Sequence record: PX915677.1
Reading direction: 5' to 3' (one strand)
Length of the DNA stretch: 64,000 bases
From: a phage
The notes below the pieces were generated by a model that worked only from the letters and a program-made list of their open reading frames with translations, was not told where the DNA came from and did not search any database. Each line of letters starts with the position of its first letter. Within the stretch, counting starts at the first letter, position 1. Below are positions 32,706 to 50,437 of this stretch, one piece after another. Position numbers and translations under genes: made by a program.

Positions 32706-34550
32706 TTAGTGTGTATGCATCCAGTTAAGTCCAATCTGACAATCAGATGCCAGAGGACATTCCATATTCAGATACTCGCCAGCTTTCTTAACACAAAGCT
32801 CGGTGTGCTCTTTGAGTTTCTGTACATCATTACGGTTTACTGAGAATTGACCTTCATCGTGCATATCAATTACCTTAGCACAACGAACCTTATCTTTCTC
32901 AATCCACTTGTTAAGGAACATCATAGCATATTTCATAACAACAGCACCAGCACATTGCAGGAGTGTGTTAAGGGCTTTATGAACCATAACCTTACCAGTG
33001 GCATCCCGTCTCATTGTAATCTTACGACCATCAACTCCAATCAAGTATCCTTGAGCAGCTTTCTCTGTCATACGATCAATGAGGATTGCAATACATGGGT
33101 TCTCTGCTAAGAAACGTGCTCGCATCACTGAACCTTCGTCAGCCCCACCACCTACAATTGAACCAAGCTTAGCATCACCAGCACCATAGTTGAATGCGTA
33201 GATAAACGTCTTAGCGTTGTCACGAGTAGGAAGACCAGCAAGTTTCTGGTTGTGGGAGTGGATATCACCTTCAAGGAGAATATCACGATACATAATAGCA
33301 GAAGCTAAACCACGTTCTGCCAGAGCTTTCTTAGCTGGGTTGTTCTCTTCAATTGCCTCAGCAAGCATATCCCTACACTCTTTAATGAGGTAGTGAGCGA
33401 GCATACGAAGTTCAAGTCCAGAACCATCATACCCTAAGAATACTTCTTTACCAGCGGGTATGTAATATTTGTAAGCACCTATAGGTTTATCTTTCTTCCC
33501 CGGCTTACCTTTCTCGTAAATTACGTTAGTACCTTTTCGTATATAACAACCATCAGGAACAACGTTAGTAATAACGAAAGGACGAGAGTGATCACTGTCT
33601 GAGTTATAGTCAGACTCAAACAAACTGCGACACTCGTGACCAAACAGACCACGGGAGGGAATATTAACCACGATACGATGTTTGAATCGAAAAGTCGGCG
33701 TAGCGCAGCTGTTAGCTTCTGCCGAAAGTTTACCATCTTCGCGTTCCTTTGCTATGAGTCCACTGATAAGACCTAGCCTGTGAGCCGCTACAACGCGTCT
33801 CTTAAGCAAACTTCCGACACTCCCTAGCTCACCCCCTAACCCTTCTTCAAGAGTCTCCTCGAGGTTTGTAGGAGCTGTAGGCCACTTGTTTGATGTGGCT
33901 AGTGCTTTCTTAATCTCATCAAACGTTACAGGATTACGGCGATTAGGGTTCAACCCCAAACCAAATACGTAAGCCTTCATGTAATTCTTAGTCTTAAACC
34001 TGAAATGCTTTTCTAAGAACTTCTTAATATCAGCGTCAACCATCTCGGCTGTCTGCTTCTGCTTAGCATTGCCTCGCATCCAAGCAGTATACCATGCTTG
34101 GTATGTTCCATACTTTCTCATATCTTTCTTAATTTCGAAAGTATTCCAAGGCTTCTTAGATACGTTAAACTCTGGAGGAAGGAAGCCCTCATCCATAAGA
34201 GCTTCTTTAACTCGTGCATCTTTAGATGGGTCAAAGTCTACATATTCGACACAGGTGAAAGCTCCACCAATATCTTCTCTCTTCAGCCCAACCCTATCAC
34301 AATAGGCTTGAGGCCACTTCTGTAAAGCTCCAGACTTCTTAAACGGCTTCATATAAGTAGAGCCATCTAATCTCATCTTAGGTAAGAGAGGAATCAACTC
34401 TCTGTCAATATTAACAATAATCTCTTTAAGGAGGTGAACATACCACCGAGCATTTCTTCGGTTGAAACTCACTCCGTGCTTTGCTTGCTTAGAGATTATA
34501 TCAGCGACAGTCATCTCTGTCAAAAATGGAAGAGCGTCCGGGTTGCTCAC
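32706..34550 (-). CDS. DNA polymerase, family A, polymerase domain only (no 3'-5' exonuclease domain)
   Basis: Motif A DGSGLELRMLAHY, motif B RDNAKTFIYAFNYGAG, motif C VIDMHDEGQF. Confidence 0.85.
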   Translation of the reverse strand: MSNPDALPFLTEMTVADIISKQAKHGVSFNRRNARWYVHLLKEIIVNIDRELIPLLPKMRLDGSTYMKPFKKSGALQKWPQAYCDRVGLKREDIGGAFTCVEYVDFDPSKDARVKEALMDEGFLPPEFNVSKKPWNTFEIKKDMRKYGTYQAWYTAWMRGNAKQKQTAEMVDADIKKFLEKHFRFKTKNYMKAYVFGLGLNPNRRNPVTFDEIKKALATSNKWPTAPTNLEETLEEGLGGELGSVGSLLKRRVVAAHRLGLISGLIAKEREDGKLSAEANSCATPTFRFKHRIVVNIPSRGLFGHECRSLFESDYNSDSDHSRPFVITNVVPDGCYIRKGTNVIYEKGKPGKKDKPIGAYKYYIPAGKEVFLGYDGSGLELRMLAHYLIKECRDMLAEAIEENNPAKKALAERGLASAIMYRDILLEGDIHSHNQKLAGLPTRDNAKTFIYAFNYGAGDAKLGSIVGGGADEGSVMRARFLAENPCIAILIDRMTEKAAQGYLIGVDGRKITMRRDATGKVMVHKALNTLLQCAGAVVMKYAMMFLNKWIEKDKVRCAKVIDMHDEGQFSVNRNDVQKLKEHTELCVKKAGEYLNMECPLASDCQIGLNWMHTH

Positions 34551-38004: not shown

Positions 38005-38661
38005 TTAACTCTCCACAGTTTTCTTCAGAGCTGCCCATGAGATTGGGTAGAGTTTAGCCATCTCTTCATCCAGAGATTTAGCAAACACTCGAACTTCATA
38101 TTGAGCGTGAGATGAGAGTCGCTGACGACACAACTCAAACCAGCCATACAAAGAACCAGTCCACACCCACTCAGTGATCATCCCCTGAGGAAGAACAAAT
38201 CGAGCTTGCTCTGGTGCAATAAATTCAATCAACTTGTCATATGCTGCTAGAGAAGCTTCATATGCATCGTTAATCAGCATTAATGCTTCAGCTCGCTCTC
38301 CGTTGATGAGTTGAATCCCTGAACCTGCATGGAGGTCCGAAGGTCTCGCAAAAATCTCTTTAGGGATGAAGACTTCAACTGCTCCATCTTTATACCGCCG
38401 GGACATTTCGTTCCACGAGAATCCAACCTGATGCTTCTGTAGTTGACGAGCGATTGCAATTGGAGCCTTACAACGAAAGGACACTTGTGGGTGACGGAAC
38501 GGAGTGCAGTGTTTCTCTCTAGCCAAGAAGTTAATCAGCCTAGTATCACGATCATTCAAATCACCCTCTCGTACAACACCAAAAGAAACTCTTGCAGCAT
38601 TAACAACAGTTTTATCACTGCCCATAGCTTCAATCAATGTTGCTTGCAATTGTTCATTCAT
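38005..38661 (-). CDS. thyX: flavin-dependent thymidylate synthase (ThyX-like), variant signature
   Basis: ThyX-like ...KHQVGFSWNEMSRRY tail (canonical RHR appears as KHQ) and overall size. Confidence 0.55.
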   Translation of the reverse strand: MNEQLQATLIEAMGSDKTVVNAARVSFGVVREGDLNDRDTRLINFLAREKHCTPFRHPQVSFRCKAPIAIARQLQKHQVGFSWNEMSRRYKDGAVEVFIPKEIFARPSDLHAGSGIQLINGERAEALMLINDAYEASLAAYDKLIEFIAPEQARFVLPQGMITEWVWTGSLYGWFELCRQRLSSHAQYEVRVFAKSLDEEMAKLYPISWAALKKTVES

Positions 38662-39133
38662 ACTTCAACTTCTCCTTGTTATAAGCAATCTCTGCTTCCT
38701 CTGGAGTATGGAAAGTTCCTAAATGCTTAGTCTTTCCGTTAACTCCGATTATAGCTCTGAATTTTGTACCACTAGCCGTCTCTCTGATGTAAACACCCAT
38801 TGGAAGTTTTCCAGCTTTTCCGGCTCTATTGTATTGTTTTCTGTTATGACAGTTTGTAGATGGGTCAACATCTCTTAGGTTTTTAAGAGAGTCATCCAGT
38901 TTAATCTGGTTGATGTGATCAATCTCAAACTCAGGCATCTTTCCATAAGAGAAAAACCAAGCTAATCGACATGCTCTGTAAGATTTCCCTTCATAATAGA
39001 TGTACCTGTAACCTAATGTTGAGACACACCCAGCAATGTTCCCTGATACTCTCCTACCTTTGGTATTCTTCCACCTAAAGATTCCAGTATCAGGGTCATA
39101 TGCTAAGTCTTCTTTTATCTTATCAGTTAACAC
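38654..39133 (-). CDS. HNH homing endonuclease with AP2-type DNA-binding domain
   Basis: YRACRLAWFFSYGKMPEFEIDHINQIKLDDSLKNLR plus AP2-like GVYIRETASGTKFRAIIGVNGKTKHLGTFHTPEEAEIAY. Confidence 0.7.
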   Translation of the reverse strand: MLTDKIKEDLAYDPDTGIFRWKNTKGRRVSGNIAGCVSTLGYRYIYYEGKSYRACRLAWFFSYGKMPEFEIDHINQIKLDDSLKNLRDVDPSTNCHNRKQYNRAGKAGKLPMGVYIRETASGTKFRAIIGVNGKTKHLGTFHTPEEAEIAYNKEKLKYE

Positions 39134-39398
39134 CTAAAGCTGTATCCAAAAATGCTTTCAGGTTTGCTTCAGTCTGCATACCAGAGAGGCTGTAATGTGT
39201 TCCACTGTTACGGTCAGGTACAACAAAAGCAGGGATGCTTCGTACACCATACTTAACAGCTTGTTCACGACCATCACCTTCAAGGATGTTAATCTCTTCC
39301 ACTTCTACATCAAACTCCTTAACAACCTTCTCAAAGGTAGGAGCCATTGCTTTACATGGAGCACACTGATCACTATAAAACTTAATTACTTTAGGCAT
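39123..39398 (-). CDS. thioredoxin-like protein
   Basis: CxxC active site in FYSDQCAPCKAMAP, about 90 aa, SD aagga. Confidence 0.65.
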   Translation of the reverse strand: MPKVIKFYSDQCAPCKAMAPTFEKVVKEFDVEVEEINILEGDGREQAVKYGVRSIPAFVVPDRNSGTHYSLSGMQTEANLKAFLDTALGVN

Positions 39399-39407
39399 GT
39401 AAATCCT

Positions 39408-39586
39408 TATGCAGTCAGGAGGTGAAGCAGGAATGGGATAACAACAGCTACGATAACCATGATAGTTGATGCTGTTTGAATCTCACCTTTCTTATCAGGA
39501 GTTTCTTCAATAAGCTTACCAGAAGCCCAATAAATACCACCACCAATAAAGATAGCCCAAATACCCCATACGATTGCTGATAACAT
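39408..39586 (-). CDS. small two-TM membrane protein (59 aa)
   Basis: MLSAIVWGIWAIFIGGGIYWASGKLIEETPDKKGEIQTASTIMVIVAVVIPFLLHLLTA; SD aagga; preferred over listed ORF 39448..39720. Confidence 0.4.
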
Positions 39587-39646
39587 ATATCTATATCCTT
39601 ATAAATAAGTTCGCCCCACCTCGGGTTAGGAGACAGGGCGGAGGTT

Positions 39647-40210
39647 TTAGTAAGACACGTCACCACTTGAATGGGACATGTTGCTCTTGACGAAGTAGCA
39701 ATACTTGCCAAGACCTTCATTAATTTCTTGAAGCATACTCTGATCGACAGGGTAAGTGGCTAAATCGCCATCAAACTCATCCATCTTCTCAATAATACAC
39801 ATCAAGGTCATGCACATATCAGAGAGCATACCGTCCATGTCTAGATCAGCATTACCCTCTGAGAACCAAGCGTGGGATAGGTAGTTAGCTGCTGTAGCAT
39901 CCACTTTAACACAGTGGTATCGCATACGTTCAGCAATACGATCTCCTACTTGTCGTGCGTAATCTTCCAGCTCATCAAACATACCATGAACACCCTGAAA
40001 TCCTGCACCAGAAACGTTCCAGTGGTAGTTCTTAGCTTTGATATGCAAGAGTTCCATGTTAGCTTGTAAGCAGCTCAGGATGTGTTCTAGGCTGTTTGCA
40101 CTAATCATGCCTTGCATTGTTTCAAGGCGAGAGATTGAAAGCTCAGACCGGTCTAACATACTATAACTGTCACGACCAATCTCAGGTAAATCAAAGACAT
40201 TCTTATGCAT
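39647..40210 (-). CDS. Dps/ferritin-like protein
   Basis: NYHWNVSGAGFQGVHGMFDELEDYARQVGDRIAERM matches the Dps ferroxidase-centre region; start at MHKNVFD with SD ggag. Confidence 0.55.
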   Translation of the reverse strand: MHKNVFDLPEIGRDSYSMLDRSELSISRLETMQGMISANSLEHILSCLQANMELLHIKAKNYHWNVSGAGFQGVHGMFDELEDYARQVGDRIAERMRYHCVKVDATAANYLSHAWFSEGNADLDMDGMLSDMCMTLMCIIEKMDEFDGDLATYPVDQSMLQEINEGLGKYCYFVKSNMSHSSGDVSY

Positions 40211-40532
40211 TTGGGTTTTCTCCATCAAGTTCAACTGAGTTAGCAACATTACGTGCAATATTATCCATTACCTGCTGGGTAATTACGATGCAGTTCTGTG
40301 GGTCTACTGACTTAGAACGCCCCATTTCAGGGTCATACACCTTAACTCGCTTAGCAGTTGAACCTGTGACCTGAAGAACCTTCAACAGATATCCCTGATT
40401 ACCAATAGACCAAGCAACAACATCACGATTCTTGATAAAGCGACCAAGCATATCACGATGATAAAACTGTTGCATCACCTTGGATTTTGTAATCTCTTCA
40501 GTGGGCGGGGCCACTTTACTCAAATCTAACAT
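40203..40532 (-). CDS. hypothetical protein
   Basis: 109-aa ORF. Confidence 0.4.
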   Translation of the reverse strand: MLDLSKVAPPTEEITKSKVMQQFYHRDMLGRFIKNRDVVAWSIGNQGYLLKVLQVTGSTAKRVKVYDPEMGRSKSVDPQNCIVITQQVMDNIARNVANSVELDGENPNA

Positions 40533-41220: not shown

Positions 41221-41754
41221 TTACACACCTTTAGATGCAACCACACCTTCAGAGTTATTATAACGACCCTTCACTGCGTAGGAATGTTCCCCTGCATGAG
41301 AGTGCTCAAACATAACCATTTGACCAACACGCATACCAGCACGAACTCGTAAGCTGTGGTGCTTGGTTACGTTATGGAATTCAAATGTCAGCTTACTGCT
41401 ATTAAATCCTGCATCTGCCCAACCGGCGTGAAGGTGGTTCAAACCACAACGAGCCATAGACGAACGCAAAACAAACAGGCTTGAGATGTTATCTGGAAGG
41501 TTAAACTCCTCCATAGAGTGAGCCAAGAAGAACTGACCCGGAGTGATAACCAAACCCTCTTCAGGAATCTTTACTTCCTTCCACTGAAGATTCTCTTTCG
41601 CATCAATATCAACGATGCCATCAGCCTGTTCTTCAACAAGGATAGTATCACCAATACGGATATCCACACTAGCAGCGTTAACATATTTATGCTCCGCATC
41701 CAGATAACCATTGTCAATTACATCGTGCAGTTCAATACTTCCTAGTAAACCCAT
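41221..41754 (-). CDS. dCTP deaminase (dUTPase-fold)
   Basis: LHAGWADAGFNSSKLTFEFHN...RVGQMVMFE pattern of the Dcd/dUTPase family. Confidence 0.55.
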   Translation of the reverse strand: MGLLGSIELHDVIDNGYLDAEHKYVNAASVDIRIGDTILVEEQADGIVDIDAKENLQWKEVKIPEEGLVITPGQFFLAHSMEEFNLPDNISSLFVLRSSMARCGLNHLHAGWADAGFNSSKLTFEFHNVTKHHSLRVRAGMRVGQMVMFEHSHAGEHSYAVKGRYNNSEGVVASKGV

Positions 41755-43078: not shown

Positions 43079-43636
43079 TTACATTTTCCAATATAATGAA
43101 GGTGGGTCGTAAGGGTCAAATCCCGTGAGTTCACACAAGAAAAGATAAACCTTAACAGTCAAGTTAACGTCCTGTTCACAATAAGTAAACATATCTTCAG
43201 TGAAAGCATCCCATGCTTCCTCTTGCTCACCGTAGTCACCTTTAAGTTCCTCTAAGAACTCACCCCATTGCTTCAAGCCGTGACCTCTTGGGCCACGTCT
43301 AGGGTCGCCTTTCGGATACTCAGGACTGTCGCCAATACGGTCAGGTTTAAGATATCGACTAAGACATAAAGTGTCAAAGACGTTAAAATTATATTTAATC
43401 AAAGAGGGATACATCTTCTTCAGAGCAGGTAAGTCGAAGTCAATAATATTATGACCCACTAGTACATCTGCTTCTGTCAGTTTACGAATCCCGTCTTCAA
43501 TTTGGTGAGGCCGATAGCCCCACCTTTCACCAGTTTCAACATCGAAGATATAAATACACCATACTTTAGTTATGTCATCGTACAGTGCATTACTCTCGAT
43601 ATCGAATGCAAACACTTTCTTCTTTTTCTTTACCAC
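43079..43636 (-). CDS. DnaQ-like 3'-5' exonuclease (stand-alone proofreading domain)
   Basis: Exo I FAFDIES, Exo [13 protein letters not shown], Exo III YCEQDV. Confidence 0.7.
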
Positions 43637-45420
43637 GGTGAAGCTCCATCTGCTTGGTTGACGAGAGAAGCTGCATCCTCTCCGTTAGTTAAAACGAATG
43701 GATTATCTTCATCAACTTCAAAGTCTTCCCTTTCTACAAGTCTACCGGTTTCGCTGATATACTTAGTATAACAGACACCTGTCTGACCGTAGTTACGTTC
43801 TTTCAGTAATCGAATGACTGAGAGGTTCTTAGCTAAGCCGTCAGCTTGCTTATCACGCTCAAAGCCAATGATACACTGACACCAACGCATAAGAGAACGA
43901 GAGCCAGTGAACTGTACTTCACGTACCTGTCCACCTTCTTCATGAGGAGCACCACCTGCCGGAGCATTAAGGTGAGATAACACGAAAGCGGTAAAGTCTA
44001 ATTCTTTACACATACCAGCAAGCTCGGAAGCAATCTTACTGATTTCAGTGTTAATCTCTGAAGGTGTTAAATGAGATACCAGAGCGGTAATGTTATCAAG
44101 GATGATGAACTTACACTGGTTTTCAACTACCCAGAAACGGATACACTGTTTAATGTCTTCCCATTCATTCTGTCCGAAGTTGTCATACAAGAAGAATTTG
44201 TCTGCATAACGAAGTGCTTCATTACGCAAATCTTCCTCGTCATATTCAACATCAGGTCGGTGGAAAGGAATTGATGCTGACTTACCAGCAATGTTCTTAA
44301 CAGACATGCCTACCTTCTCTTCCAAGAAGAAGCCACCTCCATTAAAACCATGCTCTAAGCACAGATGAGCAACCAGCTCGTGAGCAATGAGTGTTTTACC
44401 ACTCCCTACTCCACCACCAATTGCTACCACCTCTCCCCATCGAATACCGAAGGTCATCTCATTCAGAGTCTTCCACGGATACGGGATACCCCACTCCGCT
44501 TTCTTCAGAGCATCATCAAGACAATCAAAGATTGTTACAGCACCAGCAGGAGATTCCCGCTTTGCTGAATACTTGAGAATGTTGAATAACTCTTGACCAC
44601 GACCAGACAGAAGCATGTCATTCGCATCCTTAATCTCTTTCTCCACACCGTTGTATGGGAAGGTTCCTTTAGGAATACGAGCAAACTTGACATGAGGGAA
44701 TAAAGAACGACCTTTTGTTAAAGCTATCTCACCTGCATCATCGTTGTCCATGCAGAGCACAACCTCCTCAAAACCATTTACGAAGTCTCGGTTACGAGAC
44801 AACACAGAAGAGATTGAACCTGCACCGAACGGTAAAGAAACACATGCTGGTTTAATGTTTGTTGCATTTGTAAAAGCTGTAAGGACATGGAAACCTGACA
44901 TACAGGATAGCGGGTCTTCAAAAATGAAGAGCTTCTTGTTGTACACATCTCCACGTTGAGCTTGTGCCATACCAAACAAATCTGCTTCTTTCACACTGCC
45001 GACGTAATAGAACTTCTTACTATCTAGCAGCTTAACCTCGTACCCGACAATGTTTCCATCACGTTCACGAGGAAAGAAGTAACTGTCTGGTGTCTGACCA
45101 TCAGTTTGACTCAGACCAATGCGACACTCAAACCGCTCTGATACAGCTTTAGGGATTAAACGGCGAGTGAGTTCACCCTGAGGAAGCTCTAAGCAATCAT
45201 CTAAGACTTCTCTCAACTCTTCAGGGGATAACTCTTTCTTCTCGTTTGGAGTAGGTGTAGTGCCCTTTTCGAACACTTCGTAATTCCCACAACGGTTACA
45301 ACTTCCCCACTCCTCACCAGTCTCTTCGTTACGGAAGAGAATCATGTGGTTGTGGGTTTTATCACGACCATGAGAGATACATTCCTTACAACCTGTGTCT
45401 CCCAAAATGATCTTTGACAT
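43630..45420 (-). CDS. DNA primase/helicase (T7 gp4-like)
   Basis: N-terminal Cys4 zinc-binding domain, TOPRIM (LCMDNDDAG), DnaB-type Walker [10 protein letters not shown] and Walker B FIILDN. Confidence 0.85.
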
Positions 45421-48406: not shown

Positions 48407-50437
48407 TTAACCTCTATTCAATGAACATTTAGGAGAATTACAATAAACTTGATTCATAGAACCAAGCGTACAACTTTCAGCATCGCGCCACGGAATCTGC
48501 TTAAAACACTCTGAGCAGTATCCGAGGGTTGACCACATGGCTTTGGTGAAGTCAGTGCTTCGGTTTCCGTCGAAGCTGACAACAGTTTTTCGGAGAGCTG
48601 TTCGTGATTCAGGAAACACACCTGCTTTCTCAGCAGGTTCCTCCTTTTTTGGCTTAGTTGAGATTGCAAAAATACTGTTGCTACGTTTCTCAACATAAGC
48701 ATCAACAACATCCTCCAGAGTGATGCCTGTCTGTTTCGCTGATGAAGGTAATATAGTCATACGACCAATCATTTCTTCAGTTACACGTAAAGCAAACTCG
48801 GGACGACGGGCGTTTGTTGTATCTGTTGCTTTAATCCATACATAACCATCTTTGATCGTAGCATTAGATACTTTCTTCTTTACTTCTACAGCGCAGACTT
48901 TACAGATATCTTCACCACGAAGACGACTAAGTTCATCATCGAACTCATTCTCTGTTTTAACTTCACCACAGATTTCACAAACACCAATAGGAGTTTCCTC
49001 CTCTTCTTCCTCTTTAGGTTTAGTCAAACCTTCCAGACATTCAGGATGCCAATAGCACTGATATGCGAAGACTGCTTTAGGTGCATCCTTCCAATCAATG
49101 TGTTTGTCACAACCACCACAATCACCATGAGAGTGTGCTTCCCAGAATTTACGAGTGATAGTAACGCCGTTCTTGTTGACGAAACTATCATTCATATCAA
49201 AAGGGATATCATCATCGAAGTCAGCAGTAGTTGACTCAGGCTCCTTTTTCTCCAGAGATGGGTCAACAAAACGACCTGCTGTGATCACTAAGCGAACCAT
49301 AGCATTAACTTCGGAGATGCAGGATACTGTCCCACGGTAAACAATTTTAGGGTCTTTCAGGGCATCCTGATAAGCCTTAATGTCTACGTTATGAACATCA
49401 CCTTCGATGTACTCTTGAGACTTCTCATCGTAGATATAACCAATCATCTTACCACGAGAAGGAACAGCACCAGCAGTTGCATAAGGAACAAACTCATGTG
49501 GTGTGATTTCCACAGTCATATCGCGGCGAATATCAATGTTTCGATCGCTTGCGATTTTGTTTTGACTTACCACTGCGTTTCTTCGACGAACGTCTGCCGC
49601 TGTCACTCCTGGCTTCGTGTCGTAAGGATTGCTTGTACTGCTTTTTGAGGAACTTTGATAGTTGCTTTGGCTGTAGTTGTTCGAGTAGTAACTGGCCCAA
49701 CGATTGACTACCGTAAAAACCGGAAGCTCGTGGGCGACCTCTTCAACCAGAGTCATACTGTTGTTTGACATATCAAAGATATATTCTGTACCAACTTTAC
49801 ATTCAAAATGCTCGTCAATACGATTCTTATGAGACTTAGAACGCTTCAGAATCCACATCAACATATCTTCTTCAGAAGCACCAAACCAATCTCTGTTACA
49901 ACGTGCGAGGTGGAATGGACGCTCTTCGTTACGGATGATATGAAGACGGTTATCAGAAGCATCATGCCAGATTAAAGTGAAAGCACCATCCAGCTTTTGA
50001 ATAGTCTCTGCTGCACCAATAGTGTTAATAGAGTGGCAGATGTTCTCACTGTCTACCTCGAAGTTTTTGCTGTCAGGTAACAGATCTTGGTCCATCAAGG
50101 TTCCGTTATGAACCAGAGTGATGTTACCATGTTGGAAAGGATGGGCGTTCTTGGCGTTAACTGCACCTTTCGTTGCATGACGGCTGTGACCAACAATCCA
50201 TGAAGGTGCTACAGTGTAAGCTGTTTCACCAGTGGTGTGCTTCTTGTACTCATCTTGTAGGATGAATGCGAAAGAAGGAAGAGCTTCTTTATAAGTGAAG
50301 ACTTCCTTAGTGCTTTTACGCTGACCAAAGATACCGGAGGAATGTTGTCCTCGGAATACTCCAGCATAAAAGAGTTGGTTAAATACGTCTAAATCAGTGC
50401 TTGACAGATTACCGCCAGCTAATACGATGCCACAAAT
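48407..50437 (-). CDS. class-II (Ntn) glutamine amidotransferase domain protein with Cys-rich C-terminal region; apparent ATT start
   Basis: Frame open from stop 50441-43; N-terminus ?CGIVLAGG, HSRHATKG and LVHNGTL motifs; no ATG/GTG/TTG before codon 114; SD aggtgg 8 nt upstream of ATT-TGT; multiple CxxC pairs C-terminally. Confidence 0.6.
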   Translation of the reverse strand: MCGIVLAGGNLSSTDLDVFNQLFYAGVFRGQHSSGIFGQRKSTKEVFTYKEALPSFAFILQDEYKKHTTGETAYTVAPSWIVGHSRHATKGAVNAKNAHPFQHGNITLVHNGTLMDQDLLPDSKNFEVDSENICHSINTIGAAETIQKLDGAFTLIWHDASDNRLHIIRNEERPFHLARCNRDWFGASEEDMLMWILKRSKSHKNRIDEHFECKVGTEYIFDMSNNSMTLVEEVAHELPVFTVVNRWASYYSNNYSQSNYQSSSKSSTSNPYDTKPGVTAADVRRRNAVVSQNKIASDRNIDIRRDMTVEITPHEFVPYATAGAVPSRGKMIGYIYDEKSQEYIEGDVHNVDIKAYQDALKDPKIVYRGTVSCISEVNAMVRLVITAGRFVDPSLEKKEPESTTADFDDDIPFDMNDSFVNKNGVTITRKFWEAHSHGDCGGCDKHIDWKDAPKAVFAYQCYWHPECLEGLTKPKEEEEEETPIGVCEICGEVKTENEFDDELSRLRGEDICKVCAVEVKKKVSNATIKDGYVWIKATDTTNARRPEFALRVTEEMIGRMTILPSSAKQTGITLEDVVDAYVEKRSNSIFAISTKPKKEEPAEKAGVFPESRTALRKTVVSFDGNRSTDFTKAMWSTLGYCSECFKQIPWRDAESCTLGSMNQVYCNSPKCSLNRG

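Follow-up and report, generated by a model that had tools for sequence, protein, structure and literature searches.

A phage-encoded thioredoxin among the nucleotide-metabolism genes of a Kuravirus genome and a putative shortened thioredoxin-binding domain in its polymerase

The gene at 39123-39398 of the 64,000-nt stretch of phage DNA analysed here (sequence record PX915677.1, referred to as the window) encodes a genuine thioredoxin-fold protein, an ordinary small phage thioredoxin. We tentatively read this protein as a reductase-type redox enzyme that may sustain the supply of dNTPs, a role that we consider plausible while stopping a little short of calling it probable. A sequence-only reading of the same DNA had described a small CxxC (CAPC) thioredoxin-fold protein at this position, within the replication region, and had left its strand unstated. 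That description was borne out by a match to PF00085, by the AF2 model and by the match to TrxA, and the gene was located on the minus strand in the replication/nucleotide-metabolism arm. The features of the gene are as follows.

39123-39398, minus strand: thioredoxin gene, 91 aa, with an ATG start and the TAA stop codon within the span
39404-39408 (letters on the plus strand), minus strand: Shine-Dalgarno sequence AAGGA, 5 nt 5' of the thioredoxin ATG, read from the sequence
39231-39233, minus strand: cis-Pro56 codon of the thioredoxin gene

The protein sequence of the ORF begins MPKVIKFYSDQCAPCK. It matched the PF00085 Thioredoxin family with an E-value of 1.9e-13 and a score of 50.8 bits (cut-off 23.5), and PHROG 22, "thioredoxin domain", with an E-value of 8e-13. 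PHROG 22 is a very large phage family, among the largest PHROGs, and is filed under nucleotide metabolism. The solved relatives closest to the 91-aa protein were thioredoxins (E. coli TrxA, E=3.8e-8), and residues 4-88 of the phage protein aligned with TrxA residues 24-107. Because this alignment starts at residue 24 of TrxA, the phage thioredoxin is devoid of the bacterial N-terminal beta1-alpha1. The AF2 model (pLDDT 92.3) had the topology beta-alpha-beta-alpha-beta-beta-alpha, and its best structural match in Foldseek was E. coli TrxA (TM 0.80, rmsd 2.0 A, 30% identity). The Foldseek matches included TrxA with redox clients or thioredoxin reductase (2o8v, 1f6m), and this likeness to classical thioredoxins is consistent with a redox role. 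Membership of the glutaredoxin/NrdH class was rejected, since the best sequence and structure matches were classical thioredoxins. A profile search with the family HMM picked out no other ORF of thioredoxin type in the window.

The CAPC active site (C12-A-P-C15) is encoded by TGT GCT CCA TGT at 39354-39365 and in the AF2 model marks the N-terminal end of helix 13-27. CxPC with a proline is the reductase-type thioredoxin motif. C12, P14 and C15, together with R53, P56 at the cis-Pro position and G73, were the same in all 15 homologues compared, the most distant of which has 48% identity, and the active site of the Privateer thioredoxin is CSPC; the invariance of CxPC and of the cis-Pro position argues for redox function. 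The cis-Pro loop of E. coli TrxA, R73-G74-I75-P76, corresponds by alignment to R53-S54-I55-P56 of the phage protein, in which R, S and P are invariant. The residue before the phage CxPC is Gln, Ser or Thr in place of Trp. Furthermore, the buried Asp26 and Lys57 of TrxA align with the invariant K6 and N37, leaving the catalytic-assist pair absent. The changes D26 to K6, W31 to Q11, W28 to Y8, G74 to S54 and K57 to N37 are all fixed in the family. They count against the redox reading and, since they affect canonical thioredoxin residues, the activity of the phage thioredoxin is not to be assumed.

The region was 94-96.5% identical at the nucleotide level to the Kuravirus phages PGN6866, ShigP1, SU10 and phiEco32-like phages, an identity that makes the source a Kuravirus, that is, a phiEco32/SU10-like E. 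coli podophage. Kuravirus records label the gene as thioredoxin or "thiol-disulfide isomerase and thioredoxin". The thioredoxins of SU10 (gp65) and phiEco32 are orthologues with 96-98% protein identity in the same place beside ThyX, and that of Privateer is an orthologue of ~45% identity, likewise annotated as thioredoxin. By tblastn, thioredoxin homologues were present in 131 phage records. Among Kuravirus/Suseptimavirus-type records, 98 carried the thioredoxin (at least 60% protein identity) and 99 the polymerase (at least 80%), indicating that the thioredoxin gene is practically never lost in this group. The SU10 orthologue (CDS65) was seen by mass spectrometry with 52.8% coverage, and it is one of the eight middle genes common to five of five C3-morphotype phages, a list that also holds the DNA polymerase, the Dps-like protein and CDS68 (PMC4281155). 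Such core status in C3 phages exceeds the conservation usual for an accessory metabolic gene, which weighs against the redox reading.

The genes around the thioredoxin gene are listed below in the order of transcription, all of them being on the minus strand.

43630-45420, minus strand: primase/helicase, the first gene in this list
43079-43636, minus strand: 3'-5' exonuclease subunit (185 aa) of the split polymerase, after the primase/helicase
between the exonuclease subunit and the dCTP deaminase, minus strand: nucleotidyltransferase
41221-41754, minus strand: dCTP deaminase (Dcd), the upstream member of the nucleotide-metabolism block, followed by small genes
40203-40532, minus strand: CDS68-like gene, between the small genes and the Dps-like ferritin
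39647-40210, minus strand: Dps-like ferritin, 187 aa with the ATG at 40210 as its start, a conserved neighbour of the thioredoxin gene
39407-39586, minus strand: predicted membrane protein, 59 aa, PHROG 9296 (unknown function), directly upstream of the thioredoxin gene
38654-39133, minus strand: HNH homing-endonuclease ORF, an insertion that separates the thioredoxin gene from ThyX; SU10 has none here
38005-38661, minus strand: flavin-dependent thymidylate synthase ThyX, directly downstream of the thioredoxin gene in relatives
downstream of ThyX, minus strand: PhoH
32706-34550, minus strand: DNA polymerase subunit, 614 aa, farther downstream than PhoH

The homing endonuclease between thioredoxin and ThyX sets the present window apart from both SU10 and phiEco32. 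A gene for an amidotransferase nearby, which seemed to be truncated at its N-terminus, has an ATT start codon and is not disrupted. A scan for promoters and terminators around the thioredoxin gene gave matches no commoner than in shuffled sequence; a terminator-like hairpin lies between the thioredoxin and Dps-like genes, where such matches occur at chance frequency. Ribonucleotide reductase (RNR) families were found in none of the 20 largest ORFs of the window, and none is annotated anywhere in the genome of SU10 (94% identical), in agreement with the earlier statement that the window holds no RNR.

Comparison with other phages covered a handful of lineages and 10-kb flanks. The thioredoxin gene lay 5-8 kb from the polymerase gene, never adjoining it, and was surrounded by dNTP-synthesis genes. 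The window and SU10 shared the order Dcd ... Dps-like, thioredoxin, ThyX, and the metagenomic sequences L009 and L010 (~51-55% thioredoxin identity) showed Dcd ... CDS68-like, Dps-like, thioredoxin, ThyX, with NrdD/NrdG additionally present in L009. The order in Privateer (~45% thioredoxin identity) was Dcd, thioredoxin, a hypothetical protein, Dps-like and an NrdD-like fragment; its nrdA and nrdB were located 6 kb upstream. In the N4-like Achromobacter phage Axy12, too, Dcd precedes the thioredoxin gene, lying 1.6 kb upstream of it, and in the crAss-like phage cr128_1 the thioredoxin gene lies directly upstream of a very divergent ThyX. A recently transferred thioredoxin-ThyX cassette was considered for cr128_1 and rejected, because its ThyX is only remotely like that of Kuravirus, the two proteins sharing only a 55-aa local match. 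The PolA of cr128_1 aligned with the T7-like clade over palm and fingers only and had no alignable T7-like thumb. Over this sample of lineages and flanks, the thioredoxin gene appears to travel with dNTP-synthesis genes rather than with the polymerase. The nucleotide-metabolism neighbours throughout, and the filing of PHROG 22 in the same category, support the redox reading.

In the mechanism that we favour, Cys12 and Cys15 of the CAPC site would reduce the disulfides of client proteins, after which the host thioredoxin reductase (TrxB) would recycle the oxidised thioredoxin with NADPH. The client would probably be a class I RNR in need of re-reduction, namely the NrdAB of the host in Kuravirus and the phage's own NrdAB in Privateer-type phages. 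The thioredoxin would work beside its dTTP-pathway neighbours Dcd and ThyX in the same module, and its main selected job would be to keep deoxynucleotide synthesis going during phage replication. A comparable case is T4 NrdC, an 87-aa phage redoxin without the bacterial N-terminal extension that serves dNTP synthesis and is recycled by the host. The site of T4 NrdC, CVYC, is glutaredoxin-like, and T4 provides it with a dedicated RNR (NrdAB), whereas the Kuravirus protein is closest to classical thioredoxins and is accompanied by no phage RNR. Privateer-type phages encode NrdAB and an NrdD-like fragment, which Kuravirus does not, and the lack of an RNR of its own in Kuravirus speaks against the proposed mechanism. 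In addition, E. coli has abundant TrxA and glutaredoxins, so that it is not obvious what a further reductant would bring.

The only phage thioredoxin tested experimentally so far is that of Syn5 (Tahan, Shitrit & Lindell; bioRxiv 10.1101/2025.10.05.680603). It is redox-active and boosts replication of the phage genome, and RNR activation is the explanation preferred by the authors of that study (bioRxiv 10.1101/2025.10.05.680603). It resembles the Kuravirus protein in being N-terminally truncated, in its CxPC site, in coming from a phage with a T7-like polymerase and in having the same two candidate mechanisms; most phage thioredoxins are without ~20 N-terminal residues (bioRxiv 10.1101/2025.10.05.680603). 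The redox activity of a thioredoxin of this common truncated form is consistent with redox support of the dNTP supply. In contrast to Kuravirus, Syn5 encodes its own RNR, and the thioredoxins of enteric phages fall in another tree clade than that of Syn5 (bioRxiv 10.1101/2025.10.05.680603).

The polymerase brings in the main competing role. As the sequence-only reading had supposed, it is of the T7 type: T7 gp5 was the best match of the polymerase subunit both in a phmmer search of PDB sequences (E=1.2e-32 vs 1.5e-6 for Klenow) and in a Foldseek search with its AF2 model (pLDDT 91.8; ~1e-26 vs 1e-15 for Bst/Taq). A profile built from 87 polymerase homologues aligned with T7 gp5 in hhalign with a probability of 100% and E=1e-56. 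The exonuclease and the polymerase are separate genes 8.5 kb apart and not one polypeptide. A thioredoxin-binding insertion in the thumb, which had been suggested as a check, was present at the T7 site (hhalign probability 100%).

34236-34379, minus strand: thumb insertion, polymerase residues 58-105, ~48 aa, aligning with the T7 thioredoxin-binding domain

The insertion is located between thumb helices H and H1, as in T7 (domain ~262-338). The second HSP in BLASTP aligned it with the T7 domain (E=6e-5), and MAFFT and BLASTP were concordant with hhalign on its C-terminal half. On these alignments, the thumb insertion is a homologue of the T7 thioredoxin-binding domain. This raises the possibility that the phage thioredoxin is a processivity subunit, its active-site groove binding the ~48-aa domain at the tip of the thumb. 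The thumb would then be locked over the primer-template as it is by TrxA on T7 gp5, redox activity would be dispensable, and replication would not need host thioredoxin. We regard this role as unlikely on balance, although it comes next after the redox role; the two are not mutually exclusive.

Several residues of the predicted interface agree with a processivity role. The stretch GAFTCVEY (polymerase 96-103) aligned with APYTPVEH of T7 gp5 (324-331), the strand that contacts thioredoxin. Contacts between T7 gp5 and TrxA determined by MD are E319-K90, E330-R73, T327-I75, V329-R73, Y265-I72 and P325-A93 (PMC5984650). T327, V329 and E330 of T7 are identical in the present polymerase (T99, V101 and E102), and P325 corresponds to A97, which is Pro in most relatives in the clade. 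The equivalents of E319 and Y265 in the insertion differ by alignment method. On the side of the thioredoxin, R73, I75, P76 and G92 of TrxA are retained as R53, I55, P56 and G73. The presence of a thioredoxin-binding-domain homologue with its contact strand kept also counts against an exclusively metabolic explanation, and so, in favour of processivity, do the core status of both thioredoxin and polymerase in all C3 phages and the absence of a phage RNR.

Other features of the same interface argue against processivity. E102 is variable across the polymerase clade, and further interface residues of TrxA are altered in the phage thioredoxin (W31 to Q, G74 to S, K90 to L, A93 to M). The insertion is ~22-28 residues shorter than the T7 domain, hhalign showing three missing segments of ~22 residues in total, and the missing parts include the basic "backwards loop", whose basic residues in T7 touch DNA upon thioredoxin binding (PMC5984650). 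AF2 modelled the insertion as a strand-helix-strand mini-domain that is ordered by itself (pLDDT ~90). The CxPC cysteines are invariant, whereas T7 replication is independent of TrxA redox activity (bioRxiv 10.1101/2025.10.05.680603). As described above, the thioredoxin gene never adjoins that of the polymerase; moreover, thioredoxin-ThyX and Dcd-thioredoxin pairs are met again in phages that have no T7-like thumb. AF3 modelling of the Syn5 polymerase placed the host thioredoxin on it and not the phage one (bioRxiv 10.1101/2025.10.05.680603), and E. coli already supplies abundant TrxA, which T7 uses.

Compared with the complex of T7 gp5 and E. coli TrxA (1T7P), the Kuravirus system is alike in polymerase clade, in the homologous insertion at the same site, in the contact strand and in the thioredoxin fold. 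It differs in that T7 takes its thioredoxin from the host, whereas the Kuravirus one is phage-encoded and without beta1-alpha1. The active site is WCGPC in TrxA and CAPC in Kuravirus, where Trp31 is replaced by Gln and Gly74 by Ser. The T7 domain comprises 76 aa with the DNA-contacting loop, as against ~48 aa without it in Kuravirus, and the Kuravirus polymerase is split and its thioredoxin binding putative.

The distribution of the insertion bears most directly on the question of whom it would serve. The insertion and its GGPFT motif were equally conserved in the branch of the clade with polymerases of 520-570 aa, including LUZ24-like Pseudomonas phages. These LUZ24-like phages gave no thioredoxin match by tblastn; in one of them, phage TL, no thioredoxin is annotated and none of the six-frame ORFs matched the family HMM (best E=0.48). 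Of the contigs from remoter polymerase relatives, L007 (polymerase 49% identical) likewise had no thioredoxin in the 10-kb flanks of its polymerase gene. In L008, the one candidate in the 10-kb flanks was a 70-aa CGPC redoxin after Dcd/dUTPase that did not match the family HMM (E=0.28). In this handful of lineages and their 10-kb flanks, the thumb insertion does not appear to co-vary with the possession of a phage thioredoxin. Since the insertion is equally kept in the thioredoxin-less LUZ24-like phages, the polymerase does not explain the thioredoxin gene of the C3 phages; since the motif is kept without such a gene, it is no predictor of a phage thioredoxin, and TrxA from the host would do just as well. 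The earlier proposal of a dedicated processivity or redox partner therefore stands in part: the polymerase is T7-like and carries the domain homologue, but nothing singles out the phage thioredoxin over host TrxA or over no thioredoxin at all. A literature search on the host trxA dependence of Kuravirus/Gordonclarkvirinae found nothing.

A more specific form of the processivity idea would accommodate this distribution. C3 podophages would own a truncated-thioredoxin clamp acting on the minimal ~48-aa thioredoxin-binding domain of a split polymerase, free of host TrxA, and LUZ24-like phages would borrow the thioredoxin of the host. We consider this version doubtful, slightly more so than the general one.

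Improbable, in our view, is a third role in which the thioredoxin and the Dps-like ferritin together limit oxidative or Fenton damage to replicating phage DNA, possibly with the involvement of the 59-aa membrane protein and the CDS68-like protein. The thioredoxin might, for example, feed host thioredoxin-dependent peroxidases or handle H2O2 from the flavoenzyme ThyX. The thioredoxin and Dps-like genes are at most one gene apart in Kuravirus, L009, L010 and Privateer despite ~45-55% identity, both belong to the eight middle genes common to five C3 phages (PMC4281155), and the Dps-like protein carries the ferroxidase-type motif HW..H..DE..D.IAER. However, L007 has a Dps-like gene and no thioredoxin within 10 kb, and in the crAss-like and N4-like phages no Dps-like gene neighbours that of the thioredoxin. 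No direct biochemistry linking thioredoxin and Dps was found, and the hairpin mentioned above, a kind of match that occurs at chance frequency, separates the two genes. Host takeover or counter-defence, in which the phage thioredoxin would upset host thiol redox or titrate or replace host TrxA, is very improbable: the Syn5 thioredoxin, which is redox-active, is toxic to the Syn5 host (bioRxiv 10.1101/2025.10.05.680603) and several toxins and phage processes use TrxA as a cofactor (e.g. 8s2n), but the gene is a middle gene in the metabolism block, outside the early host-takeover region, and nothing specific to such a role was seen at the locus.

Phage thioredoxins were proposed to serve T7-like polymerases as early as in marine-phage papers of 2000-2003, and the Privateer paper (2021) hypothesised that the thioredoxin of C3 phages is coupled to their T7-like polymerase (PMC7881722). 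Because the gene is annotated and these hypotheses are in print (~2003; 2021 for C3 phages), the finding itself is already known. For the Kuravirus/LUZ24 polymerase clade, the present analysis adds a residue-level map of the putative shortened thioredoxin-binding domain. It also indicates, from sequence comparison, that the presence of this shortened domain and that of a phage thioredoxin do not co-vary.

If the processivity role were true, another phage group would have internalised the host-thioredoxin trick of T7. It would then be the first demonstrated phage-encoded thioredoxin clamp, with a natural "minimal" thioredoxin-binding domain, and a shorter binding module of this kind might be useful in polymerase engineering. 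If, on the other hand, the redox role that we favour were true, the Kuravirus thioredoxin would be another case of phages topping up the reducing power for dNTP synthesis without an RNR of their own.

The gene order CDS68-like gene, Dps-like ferritin gene, (small membrane protein gene), thioredoxin gene (Trx) and flavin-dependent thymidylate synthase gene (ThyX) was kept in the metagenomic phage lineages L009 and L010, and this conservation of the block held at a Trx identity of merely ~51–55%. The Trx and Dps-like genes were also no more than one gene apart in the Proteus phage Privateer, and the Dps-like protein retained a ferroxidase-type motif.

Window 39407-40532, minus strand: stretch of the Trx-ThyX block from the CDS68-like gene to the small membrane protein gene.

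A terminator-like hairpin with a GC-rich 11-bp stem was observed at 39612-39640 (minus strand), directly past the stop codon of the Dps-like gene and ahead of the membrane protein and Trx genes. The count of terminator-like hairpins around the Trx region was not above that in shuffled sequence.

A Trx-ThyX pair was also present in the crAss-like phage cr128_1, in which the gene for a Trx homologue with 37% identity was located immediately upstream of a highly divergent ThyX gene. Therefore, the Trx-ThyX adjacency is found again in an unrelated phage order. Thioredoxin and ThyX are not known to be linked biochemically.

L012 6998-8137: Trx and ThyX pair of cr128_1.

In the window, Trx and ThyX were separated by an additional open reading frame (ORF), whose ends ran into both neighbours, with an overlap of 11 nt at the Trx stop and of 8 nt at the ThyX start.

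Window 38654-39133, minus strand: HNH_3 homing-endonuclease ORF (159 aa) between Trx and ThyX.

In the Kuravirus relative SU10, the Trx-ThyX gap was 15 nt and the HNH ORF was absent, indicating that the ORF at this junction is a mobile-element insertion polymorphism.

L008, a phage contig with a polymerase 41% identical to that of the window, carried a small redoxin gene in the same relative position as the Privateer Trx gene. The product gave no match to the Kuravirus Trx HMM (E = 0.28).

L008 7523-7735: CGPC redoxin (70 aa), immediately after the dUTPase/Dcd gene.

The mechanical ORF list gave a GlmS-like amidotransferase of 563 aa, seemingly cut at its N-terminus. However, the SU10 protein aligned with the window in a single frame across 676 aa, and the apparent truncation was not a disruption of the gene.

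Window 48407-50437, minus strand: GlmS-like glutamine amidotransferase gene.

The start codon of this gene is evidently an ATT (50437-50435), upstream of which were a GGTGGA Shine-Dalgarno sequence and, two codons before, an in-frame TAG; with this start, the catalytic Cys is at position 2.

The T7-like DNA polymerase was encoded by two separate genes, polymerase (32706-34550) and exonuclease (43079-43636), both on the minus strand with 8.5 kb between them. Compared with T7, the polymerase subunit had two more clade-specific insertions, one at residues ~388-420 and the other, a basic, helical segment of ~90 aa, past thumb helix H1 (residues ~135-225). This basic segment could itself help to hold DNA.
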